Origin: Eledone cirrhosa
Taxonomy: Eukaryota
NCBI GenBank assembly: GCA_964016885.1
Contig: OZ024743.1
Location: 162,006,001 to 162,070,000 of the forward strand
Length of the DNA: 64,000 nt
Direction of reading: 5' to 3'
Of this stretch, positions 10,914 through 62,048 are shown one piece after another. Position 1 is the first letter of the stretch. Each line of letters starts with the position of its first letter. The position numbers and the translations under genes are program-made. Below the pieces are notes generated by a model. That model was given only the letters and a program-made list of their open reading frames with translations. It did no database searches and was not told the DNA's origin.

Positions 10914-11332
10914 GTAAGTATATTTAGAAACAGCGAGCGAGTTTTAAATTAGAAATAGAAGATTTTTCCGTATTTTTTACTAAAGAAATTTTAGCTTGAT
11001 AGTGGCGTTTAGAACCCTCTAAAAAATGGAAGAAATGTGATTATTGACGTACATAGTTGGTATTCTATAAGAATCCAGCTTCTAAAGCTCATAGCAAAAA
11101 CAGATAAACAGATAAACAGATAAACAGATAAACAGATAAACAGATAACCGCTAAAGAACGAGAAACGCGTCGATTATTCCCCTTTGTTTTTGCTGAAGCT
11201 AGATATGTGACTATAGTCACTACCTTAAATTCATAGTGAAAGGCCTTCAAAATGTTTTAAAATAAACATACAGTATATTATTAAATATACAATACTTGAT
11301 TCATATATACATCGTTATTTCAGAGCTTCAAC

Positions 11333-11396
<64 letters not shown>

Positions 11397-11436: not shown

Positions 11437-11480
<44 letters not shown>

Positions 11481-11743
11481 CGATAGCTGCCGGTGTTTTT
11501 GTATAGCTACGGCTTTCTAAATGTTTATTTATAGACATACCGTATTTCTTTAGAAATACAAAATTCCGATACATATCTGTATACAGCTATGCTCGAAGCT
11601 AAATTCTAATTCTATTCTATTATAAGTTGAACCAACTGATGCAGCTTTATATGCAAATGAGATTAATCACCTCATTTACACAGACGAGAAAACTATATAT
11701 TCTCGCCTGTTTTCAATGTCCAGCAGTTGCAACAGCGAGGGTG

Positions 11744-11787
11744 ATCGTCCTGATGAGAATCAGTTCAGTTCGAAATGCACCGACGAT
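11744..11787 (+). ncRNA. Hammerhead ribozyme with decayed cleavage site
   Basis: ATCGTC-CTGATGA-GAAT cagttca GTTC-GAAATGCACC-GACGAT; lies within a unit bounded by ~90-bp direct repeats (11484-11573 and 11828-11920). Confidence 0.6.
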
Positions 11788-11929
11788 TGTCCCCCCTTGC
11801 TTCTGCTAGACACTGCCAGGCGGCGGTAGCTGCCGGTGTTTTTGCATTAGCTACGGCTTTCTAAATGTTTAAAACATAAACATACCACATTTCTTTAGAA
11901 ATACGAAATTCCAATACATCTCTCTCCCC

Positions 11930-20926: not shown

Positions 20927-20993
20927 TATTTTATTATACATATTTCAGAGGTACTGAGTTAAGTTCAACAGTACGACCTCATCAGATAAAATA
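20927..20993 (-). ncRNA. Hammerhead ribozyme in the inverted pLTR copy
   Basis: Reverse complement of 25321-25387. Confidence 0.75.
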
Positions 20994-25320: not shown

Positions 25321-25387
25321 TATTTTATCTGATGAGGACGTACTGTTGAACTTAACTCAGTACCTCTGAAATATGTATAATAAAATA
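25321..25387 (+). ncRNA. Type I hammerhead ribozyme in the PLE pLTR
   Basis: TATTTTAT-CTGATGA-GGACGTACTG...CAGTACCTCT-GAAAT-ATGT-ATA-ATAAAATA. Confidence 0.75.
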
Positions 25388-33504: not shown

Positions 33505-33596
33505 AATTGTCCAGAGGAAACGAAGCTCAAACATCAGAAATATTATTTTGATTTATTCTTTTTATTGTTTCCATTTATCTTCTATTTCTAACTCTA

Positions 33597-33635
33597 TCTT
33601 CTGATGAAGGACTAGCGTCCGAAACGTTACTACTC
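33597..33635 (+). ncRNA. Minimal hammerhead ribozyme
   Basis: TCTT-CTGATGA-AGGAC tagc GTCC-GAAAC-GTT; a sister remnant at ~5779 (GTCCGAAACTTTAAGAC) supplies the AAGA helix I partner. Confidence 0.65.
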
Positions 33636-33797: not shown

Positions 33798-34262
33798 AAG
33801 TACAGAATATGATAGTGGTGGTGGTGAGTAAGTGTCCATATAAGGATGCTGTGGTGGATTTAGTGCTAACATGAAAAGTCATATTCGAAACACATAGATA
33901 CATGTAGAGAGTCTGAGGTAGTGACAGATAAAAGAAAAAGCAGTAAATTAGAAATTAATTGGGAGATACTAGTATGAGACCCAAGGACTAAGGGTGGATG
34001 GTGAAGGGGGAATTTTGACAAGTGTGTGTGTGGTAAATGTTTTGCTGATTGTCTTGTCTTAATGGGGTTGATGTGGATCTCATACTAATATCTCCCAATT
34101 AATTTCTAATTTATTGCTTTTTCTTTTATCTGTCACTACCTCAGACTCTCTACACGTATCTATGTATGTTTCGAATATGACTTTTCATGTTAGCACTAAA
34201 TCCACTATAGCATCCTTATACGGACACTTACTCACCACAACCACTAGCATATTCTGTACTTA
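33798..34262. repeat. ~185-bp inverted repeat with ~90-bp spacer
   Basis: 33798-33982 is the reverse complement of ~34076-34262. Confidence 0.85.
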
Positions 34263-34464
34263 AATGCTCTCACTTATTCTTATTTCTTTATATTTTTATT
34301 ATTTTTCCATTTTCTTACTTTTTTATTGTATCTTTTTTCTTACTTTTTAATTTTTACATCCGTAACTTCTTTACCTATTTATCATATATTTTATTATTGC
34401 TGTTAGTGTTTTGATTATACACTATTTCTCTATATATATATCATGCAATGTATGAATTATTTTT

Positions 34465-34575
34465 GTATTCTGAGGATTTGATCAGAGGTAAATAATGTAA
34501 TGGAGATCGAGTGACGCAACTTCCAGCGATTAGCGGCCTCTAGACTCACCTGATCAATGAAACAATTGTCAATAT
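34465..34575 (+). ncRNA. Type I hammerhead ribozyme with long stem II
   Basis: GTATT-CTGAGGA-TTTGATCAG...CTGATCAAT-GAAAC-AATT-GTC-AATAT. Confidence 0.75.
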
Positions 34576-34625
34576 CTGAAATAAAACCCCTTGTTGTACA
34601 GTCAACCATGTTACTCTTCATTCTT

Positions 34626-34670
<45 letters not shown>

Positions 34671-34831
34671 TAGAATTGGAGCTCTGAAATAGCAATATAT
34701 ATATGAATGTATATATAATGTATTTTGCAATACACTTTATGCTTAATTAAAAGCATTTTGAAGACCGTATGCTATTGTTTTAGAGTAGTGACAAACTCAC
34801 TTACTTTAATCTCAGCAAACAAGGGGAGATA

Positions 34832-34876
34832 AGCCGACAAGGCCTTGTTTCGCATTTATTGATGCTTATCAAGGCT
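34832..34876 (-). ncRNA. Hammerhead ribozyme, U3:A8 variant
   Basis: Reverse complement of 35247-35291. Confidence 0.8.
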
Positions 34877-35246
34877 AACTACTCCCTCCTGTCTACTGAG
34901 ATCACTGATGTTATATTCTTATAGAATTCTAGTAAATAATCAGGAACTGATTATACAGAGCGGTTGCCGGTCAGGCAGAAATTAAAAATTTGAATTGGAG
35001 CTCTGAAGTTTGTCACTACTCTAAAACAATAGCATACGGTCTTCAAAATGCTTTTAATTAAGCATAAAGTGTATTGCAAAATACATTATATTTACATCCA
35101 TATATATATTGCTATTTCAGAGCTCCAATTCTAATTTTTAATTTCTGCCTGACCGGCAACCGCTCTGTATAATCAGTTCCTGATTATTTACTAGAATTCT
35201 ATAAGAATATAACATCAGTGATCTCAGTAGACAGGAGGGAGTAGTT

Positions 35247-35291
35247 AGCCTTGATAAGCATCAATAAATGCGAAACAAGGCCTTGTCGGCT
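35247..35291 (+). ncRNA. Hammerhead ribozyme, U3:A8 variant
   Basis: AGCC-TTGATAA-GCAT caataa ATGC-GAAAC-AAGGCCTT-GTC-GGCT; helix III ACAAGGCCTTGT is a palindrome. Confidence 0.8.
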
Positions 35292-35559
35292 TATCTTCCC
35301 TTGTTTGCTGAGATTAAAGTAAGTGAGTTTGTCACTACTCTAAAACAATAGCATACGGTCTTCAAAATGCTTTTAATTAAGCATAAAGTGTATTGCAAAA
35401 TACATTATATATACATTCATATATATATATATTTCGTTTCTGAATTTGTTTAGCAAGATTCTTTATCTGAAAACGTGTGTTGAAACCGATATTGTTATAC
35501 TTTGGGAGGGTCATGTTGCCAATAAGAAACACACGCACCAGTTGCTTTCACTTTAATTT

Positions 35560-37590
35560 ATTATAATAAATTTATAAATTTAGGAATTTATAAATTTCCG
35601 GTTGGTTGGTTGGTTCCACAACCGGATAGTTGTTTATATATTGTCAAAGTTCTTTCGTCACACATTCTGTGACCTCTTCAGTGACTGGGGATTCTTTTCT
35701 TTGTTTTTGTGCCTCTCCTTTGTTCTGTCCTACGCCATTTTGTTTCTGTGTGTGTGTTGTGTGTTCAGTCTGCGCATGCGCCACATCTGGGTGTCTGTGT
35801 GTGTTTATATTCGTTTATTTATTTGTTTATTTACATGTCACAGGTTGGTTGTTTGTTCTATGTGCGTGTGTGTTTTCATTTTGTCCTTAATTGTAAGTTG
35901 TGATATTGCTGTTCCACTCATATTTTCTATTTAATTTTGGTTGTAATTCTTTTATGTTTATTGCCTATGTGATTTGTCTAAACATTGCGTCTTTTCTGTG
36001 TGTAGATTCTATTTTCATTTCTATGTTCTCTAATTTACCCTTATGTTCTATTTTAGCATGTTGGTAGAGTACAGATGATTCTTTACTATCTTGAAGGTCT
36101 CGGCAGTGTTCATTTATTCGTTCCCCTACACTACGAGCTGTCTCACCTATGTACACTATATTTTTGTCTCTACATTGTCCTTCAGTACATCTTATGCTAT
36201 ATACTACATTTCTAGTTTTACAGTTAATATGGGGGCTTAATTTACAGGTTATACATTTTTTATCTATACAGAGGGGTCTTTGAAAAGGGTATGTCTTGCT
36301 AATAAGTGTTTTTACGGAGGTAGCTGGTCTTTCTACTATCTTAATATTGAGTTTATGTTTATCTAGGGCCCTTCTAAATTTGTAAGCTAATTCACCTCTA
36401 GGGGTTGTATCGATGAACATTACACTCTGGTATTTATTGCTATCATACCATGAGTTTATTCTATTAGCCTTATTCCTAGTTCTTTCTTTTCTATTCCAAA
36501 ATTTGCTCCTATACAAGGGGCAGGTCCCATTTGTGTCATTATTTACCATTTTTTCCCATTTGGTTCTGGCTCCTCTAAACACTCTGATTTTATCTCTCTG
36601 ATTGTAACCAGAGAACTGCATACGGTGGATGAAGTGTTGTATGTGTCTATCTAGTTCTTCGGGGTTGCACATGCGGGACACGTTTCTCATCACCCGTACC
36701 AAATCCGCAATCAGTATGTTGATTTTGGTATGGTCCGAAACAGCTGAGTTTCGGTGGATCAGATATTTGGAAGTCATGGGTTTGGCATAATGGGAATGGA
36801 GGATTTGTTTTTTGTTGTTAATGGTATCTAACCAGAGCTCTGTGTCTAGTACAGGTAATCGATGGTTGGGGTGTTTGCTTGGGTAGTCTATAGTAACTCT
36901 AATACTCTGGTGGATGGAGTTAGCTCTTTGCTGGATGCTTTCCATTGTGTTTTTCTCTAATTCCTGACTGTTCTCTAGTGGGGGGGTTTTAACTACGATG
37001 TTTATATCATCAACGTAGCGGGAGTACATTATCAGGGTTATGGGGTCTTCTAATTGTTCTTTAAGTTTAAGTTTAAGTCTACTGTCCCACCATACCATGA
37101 ATAAGTTAGCTATGTCGCCTGCAATGCTAACACTAATGCTGCTCCTTCCTCTTGGGCATATGTTTTTCCATTAAATTTGAACATATGTTCCTTAAGGGTT
37201 AATTTTATGCTGGCCCCTACCGCATGTGCAATAATTTTCTTCAGTTTATCGTGGTTTTCGGGTGTCCGTATGGCTCTGGTCCACCCGTTCCATCTATCTG
37301 TGTGGGTTTTCTTGGCCATTGAGGTAAAGGTAGGTGGTCTGCCTCTTGCTGGTCTTGTAGGGCACAGGTTGCTAAGGTCATATGTGTCTAGGTAATTATT
37401 ACTATAGGTAAGTTTAAGTAGGAGTCCCAGCTCACTGGTATCAATCCCACGGAACTCAACATTGCTCTCACTGATCATTTCTACGCATTTCTCCACAGCA
37501 AAATCCACGTCAATAGATGGATACAGGGACACAACATCCATACTACCTATTATGCAGTTTGTTAGGTCCCTAGATCGGTTACTCTCGCCG
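35560..37590 (-). mobile_element. 5'-truncated Penelope-like element
   Basis: MDVVSLYPSI (RT motif A), YSRYVDDI, LPVLD, C..KKCITC..CKTRNVVYSIRC..VYIGETARSVGERINEH (GIY-YIG) in ORFs 37110-37541 and 35965-37098. Confidence 0.9.
35643..35685 (-). ncRNA. Hammerhead ribozyme in the PLE 3' pLTR
   Basis: Minus strand GTCA-CTGAAGA-GGTCAC agaatgt GTGAC-GAAAG-AA-CTT-TGAC, downstream of and co-oriented with the PLE ORF. Confidence 0.75.
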
Positions 37591-37597
37591 ATTCTAT

Positions 37598-37701
37598 ATA
37601 GGAACGAGTAGGACCCCGACGGCTGAACTCAAGCCGTTTCGACGGCGAATTAGCCGTCGAAACGGCTTGAACTCAGCCGTCGGGGTCCTACTCGTTCCTA
37701 T
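37598..37701. repeat. GC-rich fold-back palindrome centred on an HHR stem II
   Basis: Near-perfect 49-bp arms around GAATTA; right arm reads GCCGTC-GAAAC-GGCT tgaactc AGCC-GTC-GGGG, the 3' half of an HHR. Confidence 0.8.
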
Positions 37702-42667: not shown

Positions 42668-44369
42668 GCAACAATAAAGACAACAAAAACAACAACAACA
42701 CAAACGTCACAAGTATCCACACACCAAACGAGAAAGACAACAACAACAACAAAGATGAAAACAACTCAAACGACGAGAAACAAAACAATACTAAAATCCA
42801 AAGCGAAAACAAAATATCTTTTGCACAAACGGCTAAATTATCAGTCGCGTATGTGCTTGAAGATATTTCAAAAGCAAAAGAAATGCTGGAAAAAGCCAAG
42901 AAATATGTATCTTTTGGCGAAAACGGTTCGTTTTCTATACATTCACCTCCAGAACTAAAAAAACAGACGGAATTACGAACTGTCGTATTCCGAACAATTT
43001 AAAATAAAACAAAGAAACCAGCGCAACCATCTCAAGCCGAAATTCAGTTAGTCTTGAAAGACGCGATGAGAGACATCACTTTTATACAAAAGGATAAACT
43101 CTATGGGAGTTTATCCATATTGATGAAAGACGAATTGGCGTCGAAAAAATACTCTGTGTCGCCAATTCGGTCCACACACTACACCTTCTTCCCCACCTAC
43201 ATGGGTAAAAAAACCCAGAGGATATGGATAACCACCATCACCCCAAACATAAACTACTGGTGGTTACTAACCGGCTTCCTCAATTTAGACGAGGACAACC
43301 TCATTTCAATAGGGAAGGCATCCGGCGACGCGTTCAGTGGAACGAGCATCGAAGTTCTGACCCAAATAAGGCCAGAACGTATCGCCCAAATCCCTGAGCG
43401 CGTCATGCTGGATGACCGTACCCACCTCAACATTATTGTGGAGGGTAGGCGTCCCTCCTGTTACCTCTGTGGCAATAGAGGTCACCTGAGGGCTGCCTGT
43501 CCCCAGCTCACACAGAAAAAAACACTGCTACCAACACCAACACCGCCCCAACAACAACAACAAAAACAACCACAACAACAACAACAAAAAACAACAACCC
43601 CACCACCACCACCACCACCACAACAACAACAACAACAACAAACACGTGAAGAAATAACACAGAATACCGTCCCACCCAATCCCTCCCCACCCAAAACAAA
43701 TACAAAAACACACACCGCAAACACTACCAGAAAACATACCCCTCCCACCCAACAAGGAAGACGAACCCCTTTCGTCGCAAGACGAAAAAGATCCCTTCCA
43801 ACAAGTAAAAAGAAAGAAGAGGAGACGCACCACAGACACACATGTTAATGTTAACTTTAACCCCCCCCCCCCAAGAGAACACAAACTACACACAAACCAC
43901 CCCTCCCTGTCACACAACACTATCTGCTACACAAAAAAAGACCTTACAATATACATACATGAACACAGACAACAAAGAATTACGGAAAACAATTTCAGCA
44001 AACCCTTCGGTCCAAACCGAAGGGCCTAACTTTAAAACTGCTGTGGGACTACCTCATTTAAAAATGATAAAAGTCCCAATGCACTTGTACAAAACACTGA
44101 AAATAAATTTCACGGAGGACGTGGGCCCCCCCCTGCGCCAAACCAATCAACCGCGTCCTCCTAAAAAATTTCACCCCACCCCACCCCACCAGACACCCAC
44201 TCAACCACAAACACCCCAACCCCACTACACACCGATGCCCCTTCACTTCCACAAACCACCACCCCACCCAACAACCCATCCCCAACCAGCATGGAAATTG
44301 AGCGGCCCGTTTCCCGGGACGCAGAGAGGTAAGTGCCTTTTCTCCTTACCACCAACATGGCTGTGCTAA
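42601..44369 (+). pseudogene. Tx1 ORF1 (gag-like CCHC knuckle), with a stop at 43000 and a frameshift
   Basis: Asn-rich N-terminus, ISFAQT..FGENG, EGRRPSCYLCGNRGHLRAAC; homologous to 62227-63742. Confidence 0.8.
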
Positions 44370-47300
44370 GAGTAGGGTGTCTAAATGCGCGTGGCCTGGG
44401 CTCGTCTTGGAAGCAAGCAATGCTTCTAAATGACCTCAGGTCACAATCTATAAATGTGATGGTTATCTGCGAGGCCCGGATCAGCAGCATGCGACAGCTA
44501 GCCCCCACCTTTGACGACTTTGAGATGCACGCATCTCTCTGTCAGCCCGGAGGTGGGGGTGGGGTTGTCGTTCTGCTGCAAAAACATATGGGCCTTGCAA
44601 CACAGATAGTTCACTTGGACCCAGGTGGTCGACTGGTGGTGCTGGACCTTGGCAGTGGTGAAGGTAGAGCCTTTAGGCTGGTAGCCGCATATGCCCCTTT
44701 TGGGACTGAGCGGCCCGACTTTTTCCAGCGTCTGGAGTCTTTTCTAGGGACGTCCCGTTCCCTGCTTTTAGTGGGGGATTGGAATGGTATCCTGGATGCA
44801 CGTTGGGACTATGCAGGGGCATGTCCCGATAGAGAGGGGTGCAACAGCCTCAAGGGGTTACTCGGCCGATTTGACCTGGCCGATAGATTTCGACTAGATT
44901 TTCCGACGGTGCCAACCTGGTCTTGGTCAAATCGCAGCGGATCATCTTGGTCGTACCTAGATAGATTTTTAGTTAGAAATAAGGACAGGGACTTTTTAAG
45001 TTGTCCAGAAATGCTCATGGTTGGCTATTCAGACCACAAGTTGGGGACCTGCATGGTCAACCTTGATAGAACGCATAGACAGGGCCCCGGTTACTGGAAG
45101 CTCAACTTGTCCTTGCCGGCAAGTAGAGCCTACAGGGATCGGATTAGTACGTTAGTTAAGGAACGGTTGACTGGAGCGATCGTCAACAGCAGGTGGTGGG
45201 TATCTCTAAAGAGAGAGATTAGAGTAGTCTCGATAGAATTTAGTAAGGTTCTAGCTGCGGATAGGAATAGGAAGGAAAGGGAGCTAATAGATAGAGTAGA
45301 AGAGGCTATTAGAAGCGGCGACGTGGCCAGAGTGCTAGCGTCGAGAACGGCTTTGAGCCAGTTTTTCGACGCGAAGCACGAAGGCTGCGTTGTCCGAAGT
45401 AAAATACGTGCTCTAGGGAACGAGGGGGCCAAAGCTGTTAGCTGGGCCCGCGTGACAGAGGCCAACAGTGGAACTAAATCCACCATCCGGTCTTTGCGAG
45501 ACCTGGATGGACGGGCGATTCTTGAGCCTAAGCAGATGTGTGAGGCCTTTCAAAGGCACTTTGCCCGACTGTTCGGGAGGGGCGGGGAGCCGGTTGGGAA
45601 CGTGGACTTCGGTCCATACCTCGACGGCCTGCCGCGCCTCTCGGACAGGGAGGCGAAGTCCTGCGAGGAGCCGATTTCGGCCGCTGAGATAGAGGACGTG
45701 CTGAGCCAATGCGGCAAACGCAAATTCCCGGGTCTCGATGGTCTTCCTTACGAATTATATCTAGCTATGCCGGACTTGTTCCCCGATCTCCTCGAGGCGG
45801 TCTACTGCAACTGGCAACAGAACGGGAGAATTCCCTGTACTGTGACCAAGGGCATAGTCACGCTAGTGAGGAAGGACGAGAACAAGGGGGACGAAATAAG
45901 TAACTTCAGGCCCATAACTCTGCTAAATACAGAGTTACAGATTTTGGCCAAGGTGCTAGCAAAGAGGTTGGCGCTTGTCGTGGGCAACCTGGTGGGAGAT
46001 CCGCAGACATGCGCTATCCCGTCCAGGTCCATCCATGACAACCTCCACCTCATGCGATACATCATAGAGAGGGTTGGGAACGAACCCGGCTTTGGTGGGG
46101 CTCTGATCAACTTGGATCAATCTAAGGCGTTCGATAGGGTCGACCATGGTTACCTGGATGCGGTGCTAGCGGCGTCAGGCTTCGGACCCGTTTTCAGGGG
46201 CTGGATCACTGCTATGCACAGCAGCCGCATCTGCTCTAGGGTCAAGGTGAACGGCTACCTCTCGGAACCGTTCAAAATCGCGCGGTCCATCCGACAAGGG
46301 TGCCCTCTCTCCTCCCTTCTGTATGTGTTGACTCTCGAGCCACTACTGCGGAAGTTGGAGTTGTTGCAGGGCATCCCTTTGGAACCGGGATTGCGGAAAG
46401 CGGTGTCGGCCTACGCCGATGACGTGACAGTAATGGTGTCGACGGCCTCCGAAATCGAGGCGGTCGGCACCTTACTGGAGGAGTACGAAAGGTTCACAGG
46501 GGCTAAGCTGAACCGGGACAAGTCGATCGGTTTGCAACTCGGCACGTGGAGGGGCAGACCGATGCCCTCCGATGGTGTCGTCGGACGCTGGACGGAGGGC
46601 CCGGTGAAGTTGCTCGGGGTCTGGTTCGGACCGGACCTCCAGGTGGAGAAAAACTGGGCGGAGGTTACGAACAGGGTGTTTGCACTGACCCAGAAGTGGG
46701 CCAGTTGCAAACTATCCCTGAAAGGTCGGGCGGAGGTGGCGAACACCTACATAGCGTCCGTCATCTACTACCGCCTGACCGTAGTGCCCTGCCCAAGGGA
46801 AACCCTCACCAAGATGGAGCGCGCACTCTTCCAATTCCTTTGGAAGAAGCGGGCTCCTATGGTGAGGAGATCCATCTGCTGTCAACACCCTTCGAAAGGA
46901 GGGCTGGGGATGCCGTGGCTAATGATGCGTAAACACGCATTAAGGCTACGGCACCTCTACGTATTCCTCACCGGTCAACCGGTGTGGGCCTCGTTTGTGA
47001 GACGAACCTTTCCCAGACTCGTCTCACTCACCGAGCTGCAATCCTGGGTCAAGCAAAGACCGAGAAAACTGGGCGCCTGGCACACTGAGTGTGCCCAGGC
47101 GCTCACCGCCCTCTGGCAGGCGGATCCGGTTATCAGTGGAGACTCCACCGCAACATTCTATAGAGGGCTGGTACGCAGCAGGTGCGACGACGCCCTCGGA
47201 GAAGCCCTAGACATGGAGGAGGACGAACTGGCCAGCCTGTTCGGTAGGACATTCAGCCCGGGACCTATGGACAACTTCCAGAAGTCCCTGGCCTGGCAGT

Positions 47301-47794
47301 GCTACCGAGGGGCTTTACCCGTTCGAGAAAGGCTCTACAGACACGGGCGCCCGGGTAGGGACCCCGCCAAAAAGATCTGTCCCAGATGCGTGTGCGACGA
47401 GGAAACCGTTGCACACGCATTGGTACACTGCTCGGGCGTAGCCGATCTGTGGGGCTATGTCGAACAACTGCTGTCAAGGGTGGGGCCGATCCGGTTGACC
47501 ACCGAGTCTATTGTAATGATCAAGCCGCCTCCCCCCTTCAAAGATGAAGCAGAGGCGGTGTTTCTGTGCGTAATAGCCATGGCGAAAGAGGTTGTATGGT
47601 GGACGCGTCTGAAAGGACTGAGGTCAGGCACCTTTCTCTCTGGCCAACAACTGGTCCGTTTCTTCCGATATCATTTCGGAAGAAGGATCAGGATGGAGAG
47701 AGAGGTGCTCCACCCCAGTCGTTTTTATGAAAGGTGGGTGAAAGTGGCGAGAATGGCCCGTGTGAATGGGCCTTCTCTTTACATAAGCCTGTAG
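44357..47794 (+). CDS. Tx1/L1 ORF2: APE endonuclease, reverse transcriptase and C-terminal CCHC
   Basis: LNARGL, ICEA, VGDWN, YLDRF, SDH (APE); PGLDG, FRPITLLN, LDQSKAFDRV, RQGCPLS, AYADD (RT); CPRC..ETVAHALVHC; uninterrupted. Confidence 0.95.
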   Translation: MAVLRVGCLNARGLGSSWKQAMLLNDLRSQSINVMVICEARISSMRQLAPTFDDFEMHASLCQPGGGGGVVVLLQKHMGLATQIVHLDPGGRLVVLDLGSGEGRAFRLVAAYAPFGTERPDFFQRLESFLGTSRSLLLVGDWNGILDARWDYAGACPDREGCNSLKGLLGRFDLADRFRLDFPTVPTWSWSNRSGSSWSYLDRFLVRNKDRDFLSCPEMLMVGYSDHKLGTCMVNLDRTHRQGPGYWKLNLSLPASRAYRDRISTLVKERLTGAIVNSRWWVSLKREIRVVSIEFSKVLAADRNRKERELIDRVEEAIRSGDVARVLASRTALSQFFDAKHEGCVVRSKIRALGNEGAKAVSWARVTEANSGTKSTIRSLRDLDGRAILEPKQMCEAFQRHFARLFGRGGEPVGNVDFGPYLDGLPRLSDREAKSCEEPISAAEIEDVLSQCGKRKFPGLDGLPYELYLAMPDLFPDLLEAVYCNWQQNGRIPCTVTKGIVTLVRKDENKGDEISNFRPITLLNTELQILAKVLAKRLALVVGNLVGDPQTCAIPSRSIHDNLHLMRYIIERVGNEPGFGGALINLDQSKAFDRVDHGYLDAVLAASGFGPVFRGWITAMHSSRICSRVKVNGYLSEPFKIARSIRQGCPLSSLLYVLTLEPLLRKLELLQGIPLEPGLRKAVSAYADDVTVMVSTASEIEAVGTLLEEYERFTGAKLNRDKSIGLQLGTWRGRPMPSDGVVGRWTEGPVKLLGVWFGPDLQVEKNWAEVTNRVFALTQKWASCKLSLKGRAEVANTYIASVIYYRLTVVPCPRETLTKMERALFQFLWKKRAPMVRRSICCQHPSKGGLGMPWLMMRKHALRLRHLYVFLTGQPVWASFVRRTFPRLVSLTELQSWVKQRPRKLGAWHTECAQALTALWQADPVISGDSTATFYRGLVRSRCDDALGEALDMEEDELASLFGRTFSPGPMDNFQKSLAWQCYRGALPVRERLYRHGRPGRDPAKKICPRCVCDEETVAHALVHCSGVADLWGYVEQLLSRVGPIRLTTESIVMIKPPPPFKDEAEAVFLCVIAMAKEVVWWTRLKGLRSGTFLSGQQLVRFFRYHFGRRIRMEREVLHPSRFYERWVKVARMARVNGPSLYISL

Positions 47795-49600: not shown

Positions 49601-49664
49601 ATTTCGTTATATATATTTCAGGGATATCATATTAACAATATGTTATGCCTTCTTCAGACAAAAT
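49601..49664 (-). ncRNA. Type I hammerhead ribozyme
   Basis: Minus strand ATTTTGT-CTGAAGA-AGGCATAACATATT..AATATGATATCCCT-GAAAT-ATAT-ATA-ACGAAAT. Confidence 0.7.

Positions 49665-58143: not shown

Positions 58144-62048
<3,905 letters not shown>

Follow-up and report, generated by a model that had tools for sequence, protein, structure and literature searches.

Within the window, by which we mean the whole 64,000-nt stretch of Eledone cirrhosa DNA that was analysed, a (TA)n tract carries two inverted copies of a 319-nt repeat (Table 1). An earlier note, made from the letters alone, had described two over-length, near-identical, non-coding copies with a period of 319 embedded in (TA)n, and this description holds, with 1.07 units in the left arm and 1.32 in the right. 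Its span of 34668 to 35421 is slightly short, as the right arm extends to ~35428, where it merges into (TA)n. We took window positions 35008-35326 as the reference unit U (319 nt). The unit has 34% GC and its longest stop-free frame is 46 codons, i.e. it is non-coding. The earlier description of a young, non-coding, hammerhead-bearing unit is supported.

The arms stand head-to-head, with a 5'-to-5' joint at 35007/35008 where one base is common to both. This junction occurs only once in the assembly, and no short contig bridging it was found in the independent contig sets. The right arm is truncated on its 5' side at U1 and stops on its 3' side at what we call the 'short' fixed end, while the left arm is truncated at U109 and stops at the 'long' fixed end. 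Both have terminal direct repeats with period 319 and are bordered on their outer side by (TA)n, from which the last ~10 nt of the right arm are indistinguishable. The two arms differ at four sites and in their ends.

Table 1. Features of the two-armed locus and its immediate neighbours (window coordinates).
Feature	Position	Strand	Remarks
Neighbour: 3' end of another repeat	34440-34629	+	Hammerhead-like motif read by eye
Left (TA)n target tract	34630-34667	.	
Left arm	34667-35007	-	U109 round to U130; 341 nt, 1.07 units; 98.8% to unit
One-sided tail (U103-U130)	34667-34694	-	Outer end of left arm only
Complete 121-nt intron-like stretch	34684-34804	-	GT donor 34804, AG acceptor 34684
Second hammerhead copy	34832-34876	-	Core from 34872; predicted cut after C17 34836
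Right arm	35008-35428	+	U1 round to ~U102; 421 nt, 1.32 units; 99.5% to unit
Right-arm intron-like signals		+	Donor 35319, acceptor 35120
Distal 12-bp stem	35221-35232 with 35303-35314	+	Extends stem I, encloses hammerhead
Minimal type I hammerhead	35247-35291	+	Stem I 35247-35250/35288-35291
Right-arm hammerhead U3-A8 core	35251-35257	+	Predicted cut after C17 35287
Right-arm hammerhead stems		+	4-bp stem II 35258-35271; palindromic stem III 35275-35286
Right (TA)n tract	35419-35432	.	Also part of neighbouring element's 3' end
Neighbour: broken coding Penelope-like element	35433-37628	-	RT-like frames, GIY-YIG, own unrelated 3' end

The unit and its two neighbours have only the (TA)n tract in common, and the Penelope-like element (PLE) on the right has no similarity to the unit. 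An apparent unit-like 3' end in this neighbour was an artefact of masked letters and disappeared in a profile comparison. The neighbour's 3' end (35433-35700, minus strand) has ~10x the summed contig depth of the unit (contig sets X2 and X3), hinting that its family is very abundant.

Several other elements were seen in the window. A tRNA-like repeat at 10915-11055 (minus strand) represents a second non-coding tandem family with a ~257-nt unit and 3210 candidates, which has a head-to-head layout and (TA)n ends as in the 319-nt family (loci L152-L175, e.g. L174). In four of the five loci tested, ARAGORN reads its tRNA-like segment as tRNA-Ser or -Phe; no hammerhead was noticed in it by eye, and a literature search gave nothing specific. 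The family may represent a repeat with a tRNA head that is mobilised by enzymes of the Penelope type. This repeat was considered as a parent of the 319-nt unit and rejected, as it is a different family. At 10915-11338 it is joined head-to-head to a copy of an older 319-nt subfamily (11060-11338, plus strand), which carries a (AAACAGAT)6 expansion through its hammerhead, and the join is possibly the product of two RNAs in one insertion. Positions 11478-11920 hold a non-coding unit with a ~342-nt period and a hammerhead-like motif, read by eye, near 11750-11770; its 3' region matches the 319-nt family profile weakly (E 8e-5). Further hammerhead-like motifs, at 33545-33600, 20935-20985 (minus), 25329-25379 (plus) and 49608-49657 (minus), are probably the ends of other Penelope-like copies. 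In addition, there is an unrelated inverted repeat at 33798-34261 (~200-nt arms, 89-96% complementary), as well as a 1153-codon open frame at 44333-47794 (plus strand) with endonuclease- and RT-like motifs by eye. The latter is likely a young non-LTR retrotransposon and has a broken relative at ~58200-61700.

Predicted hammerhead and intron-like stretch

The hammerhead core in each arm reads UUGAUAA. Rfam HH9 matches both hammerheads weakly (E 0.013 and 0.06, under the gathering score), and the Rfam search at the gathering score returned no match. U3-A8 cores, and pairs of hammerheads on opposite strands 100-700 bp apart, have been published for PLEs (PMC4209133). Across subfamilies, 94% of the cells in the hammerhead plus distal stem are paired, compared with 36-47% in slid controls. 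In the covariation sample (11 hand-picked copies from five subfamilies), both partners are altered in 13 of 24 pairs (0 of 500 shuffles), a signal that is strong but carries no probability, because the structure was drawn from these same, related sequences. Judged by these alignments, the predicted hammerhead is maintained by compensatory change across five subfamilies.

When folded as a circle, the unit gives a z of -5.6 (60 shuffles). In the lone monomer the hammerhead is not formed and an alternative pairing is preferred (z -1.0 to -1.7). A short frame from stem II to just past the acceptor was also read by eye, and we assign no protein to it.

The 121-nt stretch that is complete in the left arm is intron-like in sequence. 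Its donor (GTAAGT, GTGAGT or GTATGT, depending on the subfamily) and its AG acceptor are conserved at a spacing of 121 nt in 8 copies from five subfamilies, and introns are known to occur in PLE repeats (PMC4209133). A genome search for spliced copies with one of the donors, allowing up to one mismatch, found none. The short 3' end falls inside this stretch, and therefore its template would be unspliced.

Fixed 3' ends, dispersed copies and a satellite

In the 3.0-Gb genome the unit has 1991 candidate places, 40 of which were scored and gave 172 matches at 90-100%. Exact hammerhead copies of two young subfamilies number 174 (the window's subfamily, with a strand balance of 89/85) and 1703; older subfamilies, at 75-87% identity, have an identical layout. 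Exact junctions of the long end (U128) with (TA)n occur 342 times and those of the short end (U102) 473 times, with none in the control, it being noted that both counts were selected for (TA)n by design. In a sample unselected for target, most outer arm ends likewise abut (TA)n.

The earlier note had read the two permutations of the unit as the signature of a circle. Plotted across the genome, the 5' starts of the copies are indeed scattered, as truncations round the unit, but the 3' ends are fixed at two sites ~26 nt apart; the two permutations at the locus are the product of these two ends (U102 and U128) combined with random 5' truncation. In the long-end sample, which combines the first 30 loci with 60 more from the listing that lie on the two largest contigs, 88 of 90 loci are anchored and 70 of these 88 are inverted. 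The partner end of the inverted loci is at U99-102 in 54, of the long type in 3 and elsewhere in 13, so that, among the 57 loci that can be classified, 54 combine a long with a short end (P about 4e-10, as a rough figure, vs. independent choice). Among 30 short-end loci, 8 of which repeat the long-end set, 29 are anchored and 20 inverted, with a long partner in 18. The resulting tail is ~26 nt by alignment, and up to ~36 nt if the short end is taken as the start of the internal TA tract.

This is the footprint known from PLEs, in whose insertions a 5'-truncated copy lies inverted and a tail of 30-40 bp is often confined to one end (Craig et al. 2021, PMC8557442), and whose protein cuts AT-rich DNA and extends both strands, two internal RNA starts defining the tail (Frangieh et al. 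2024, PMC11167929). The hallmarks of this type of insertion, namely the inverted truncated copy, the one-sided tail and the AT-rich or microsatellite target, are all present in the 319-nt family. A coding PLE in the same genome, L260, is likewise two-armed, with one long and one short 3' end and a tail of ~40 nt. The geometry of the arms marks the enzyme and not a circle, because L260 and the published layout of PLEs (PMC8557442, PMC11167929) are equal to it, and the argument from permutation is not supported. The Penelope-type inverted integration proposed in the earlier note is borne out by the two-armed loci with their fixed ends and one-sided tail. Two coding PLEs, at L260:1460-4725 and L252:58-3655, are almost perfectly palindromic (99.7% and 98.6%), the 5' truncation point being identical in the two arms of each.

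The fixed position of the 3' ends, the scatter of the 5' ends and the hundreds of dispersed loci form a pattern of retroposition, which is indirect evidence that the family was dispersed by reverse transcription in trans. We are confident that it spreads by non-autonomous retrotransposition driven by PLEs.

Many arms exceed one unit (42 of 88 long-end arms and 29 of 70 partner arms). In the window's subfamily they reach 2.8 units, with up to three hammerheads in tandem among the first 100 of the 174 copies listed, and loci with 3-6 units are present in the family. Arms longer than 3 units display local DNA duplication, with variants common to some of the units (L177, L180, L182). One large array (G000:C2:207686320 to beyond 207735499; L178, L183-L186) comprises at least 148 units over at least 48 kb, in which 316- and 304-nt units alternate and higher-order repeats occur, together with four copies of an inserted ~185-nt repeat. 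It grew out of one arm of an ordinary two-armed insertion. As a source of the dispersed copies it was rejected, since the array's markers are absent from all dispersed loci checked.

Nature of the RNA template

The predicted cut (U280/281) is passed by 68 of 88 long arms and 48 of 70 partner arms. Of 234 crossings of this site, 232 have one of three haplotype lengths and show no scars. 5' ends fall within 5 nt of the cut in 10 of 184 cases, a count that includes the L064 row, an alignment artefact (6.4 expected, P 0.11), and within 2 nt in 3 (2.9 expected); there may be a weak excess just 3' of the cut. Since the arms cross the cut with neither significant pile-up nor scars, these data argue against linear cut monomers.

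The passes within a locus are also uniform. Subfamily-diagnostic sites are discordant in 2-3% of comparisons within a locus vs. 49% between loci. In a set of 123 loci (after removal of 11 duplicates and 9 long-arm loci, and also of short or diverged arms and of the TA-rich U76-105), 20 rare variants occur in every pass of a locus, 16 of them across both arms, vs. ~0.6 by chance. Variants confined to one pass recur 29 times in the window's subfamily, where 25 are expected by chance, and 27 times in subfamily B, where 15 are expected, a mild excess. RNA-editing scars were considered and rejected: A>G and T>C number 7 and 3 among the rare all-pass variants, and 53 and 44 among the one-pass variants (P 0.42), which is no significant difference. 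Reads over 35287/35288 would not be decisive for a circle, because genomic tandem copies span the same site. Overall, the family-wide patterns modestly favour a circle over other templates, and we lean slightly towards a monomeric circular RNA.

The most serious rival, which we hold to be the less likely explanation, has the same PLE machinery copying an uncut linear multimer from a few short tandem master loci, with the hammerhead acting late or trimming RNA ends. Units do duplicate locally, therefore homogeneous multimers could arise without a circle and furnish new masters; such duplication is visible in the family, loci of 3-6 units exist, and the one-pass excess in subfamily B is in keeping with it. 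The lack of pile-up and scars at the cut fits this explanation equally well. In vitro, an anole PLE inserted normally even when its hammerhead was mutated and used mainly uncut RNA as substrate (PMC11167929), cleavage by minimal hammerheads of the PLE type was poor (PMC4209133), and 8 of 9 Xenopus retrozyme dimers gave no cutting (bioRxiv 10.64898/2026.07.22.740005). Internal priming, however, requires RNA downstream of the start site (PMC11167929), from which we infer that linear copying would shorten the element in each generation; therefore something must rebuild uniform multimers from monomers, and a circle does so simply. The daughters of an uncut multimer should accordingly shrink, yet the window's subfamily retains arms as long as 2.8 units, and no long array was seen in it. 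Furthermore, all passes are uniform within each of the subfamilies, of which there are at least five, and within each of many haplotypes; the large array is a sink, and the hammerhead has been preserved by compensatory change.

Linear monomers cut by the hammerhead, with the RT jumping from end to end without ligation, would explain both the uniform passes and the conservation of the hammerhead, and could account for the ten 5' ends close to the cut. We regard this as improbable, given that the pile-up is not significant, that nearly all crossings are without gained or lost bases, and that most long arms extend beyond the cut.

More doubtful still is the proposal that the unit is merely the pLTR of a coding PLE outside our sample, its copies being truncated insertions. 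The minimal U3-A8 hammerhead, the intron-like stretch and the tail are all pLTR traits (PMC4209133), and the GIY-YIG loci examined cover a small fraction of the candidates. Against it, each unit has another unit upstream, in arms of up to 2.8 units and more, and three same-strand neighbours are set apart from it by inverted arms or (TA)n. In the loci checked, no RT plus GIY-YIG frame lies in the unit or is attached to it: an upstream coding flank common to solo arms was found in 0 of 31, coding attachment in none of 29 older-subfamily loci, and an attached match to the unit in none of 73 PLE 3' flanks or 50 GIY-YIG loci (of 10,596 candidates). Within these flanks and loci, the unit is never part of a coding PLE, which is the outcome that the earlier note's reading called for.

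A DNA-level repeat (satellite fragments or a foldback) or an assembly artefact is scarcely credible: one satellite of at least 48 kb does exist and the window junction is not bridged by short contigs, but hundreds of dispersed copies have two exact 3' ends on (TA)n, the satellite itself starts with a two-armed insertion of the ordinary kind, further inversion joints in the family recur in independent contig sets, and the arms of the locus differ at their four sites and in their ends.

Returning to the circular template, our reading of the locus, which we hold by a narrow balance of belief, is one insertion of the 319-nt hammerhead repeat, pasted into (TA)n by a PLE RT-endonuclease from monomeric circular RNA. 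Read-through transcription of a tandem copy would give an unspliced multimer RNA, which paired hammerheads would cut into ~319-nt monomers that are then ligated into circles. A PLE protein, likely a dimer, would nick both (TA)n strands, one DNA end priming at ~U128 and the other at ~U92-102; the latter may be a second intrinsic start site or reflect base pairing to the (UA)5 tract inside the unit. Both RTs would travel round the same template, across the ligated cut, and dissociate at random points, and the cDNA ends would be joined with little or no homology. Occasional later expansion of one arm at the DNA level may convert an insertion into a satellite.

We extend this, tentatively and with our doubts slightly prevailing, to the whole family. 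Each two-armed insertion would be the footprint of one PLE dimer, its two RTs jointly circling a single hammerhead-made RNA circle from two set starts, one per cut strand. The family would then be a freed pLTR (hammerhead, unspliced intron and start sites) that has persisted over five or more subfamilies as a parasite based on circles and is able to seed satellites.

Each ingredient of the 319-nt family is already in print. The new details are the intron-like stretch, for which the search gave no spliced copy, and the satellite grown from one arm, which shows a satellite of at least 48 kb born from a retroposed copy. In this family, a repeat that consists purely of a hammerhead unit bears the insertion footprint of PLEs, and its start sites are mapped; the circle-copying step is therefore testable with a defined 319-nt RNA. 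In addition, the near-strict pairing of long and short ends constrains how the PLE dimer uses its two start sites.

Comparison with known systems

In L1 twin-priming, a head-to-head inversion also arises by priming at both DNA ends, and there the two parts derive from separate regions of a single linear RNA. In contrast, both arms of the 319-nt element cover the same unit, from fixed starts.

The family is closest in its insertions to endonuclease-bearing PLEs and their pLTRs, with which it shares 5' truncation, partial tandems, an inverted 5' copy and a tail at one end (PMC8557442), as well as AT-rich or (TA)n targets and two RT start sites (PMC8557442, PMC11167929). The minimal palindromic hammerhead, including the U3-A8 core, is likewise a pLTR feature, and introns are found in pLTR repeats (PMC4209133). 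Unlike these PLEs, the 319-nt element is frameless and its tandem unit is the whole element. Its long/short pairing is also nearly strict, whereas the anole PLE in vitro has start sites alike on both strands, with no strand preference (PMC11167929). Non-autonomous PLEs such as MRC1, from the algal Chlamys group, have a 3' end similar to that of an autonomous family (PMC8557442). They belong to a clade described there as having no canonical hammerheads, and differ from the 319-nt unit, for which no autonomous partner was found in the loci checked.

The other close relatives are the metazoan non-LTR retrozymes (Cervera and de la Pena 2020, PMC7229834; Li, Clavereau and Pollet 2026, bioRxiv 10.64898/2026.07.22.740005). 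These too are non-coding tandem units of 150-450 nt with GC below 45% and one type I hammerhead each, they range from dimers to long arrays, and they share their genomes with PLEs. The 319-nt family has such a low-GC, non-coding tandem unit within this size range, with one predicted type I hammerhead per unit. In coral, mussel and axolotl, retrozymes occur as circles of 170-400 nt, and the same work put forward that PLE or LINE enzymes copy such circles by target priming (PMC7229834). Mobilisation by PLEs from a circular template, giving tandem DNA, is in both sources a proposal rather than a demonstration, as far as their relevant sections go, and insertion ends are not mapped in those of PMC7229834. 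Our literature search, which covered sources other than subscription journals, Repbase/Dfam and preprint supplements, found no account of a retrozyme from a cephalopod or with mapped ends.

The coral, mussel and axolotl elements have a canonical hammerhead (PMC7229834), and the 2020 definition of a retrozyme asks for one with loop-loop contacts; the 319-nt unit instead has the minimal PLE-type variant, with its U3-A8 core, palindromic stem III and sub-gathering Rfam score, and falls outside that definition. The definition of 2026 also admits minimal hammerheads (bioRxiv 10.64898/2026.07.22.740005). Further differences from metazoan retrozymes are that the 319-nt copies are mostly two-armed inversions with fixed ends and contain an intron-like stretch. 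On its sequence features, the 319-nt family behaves like a non-autonomous PLE and at the same time fits the 2026 sequence definition of a non-LTR retrozyme.
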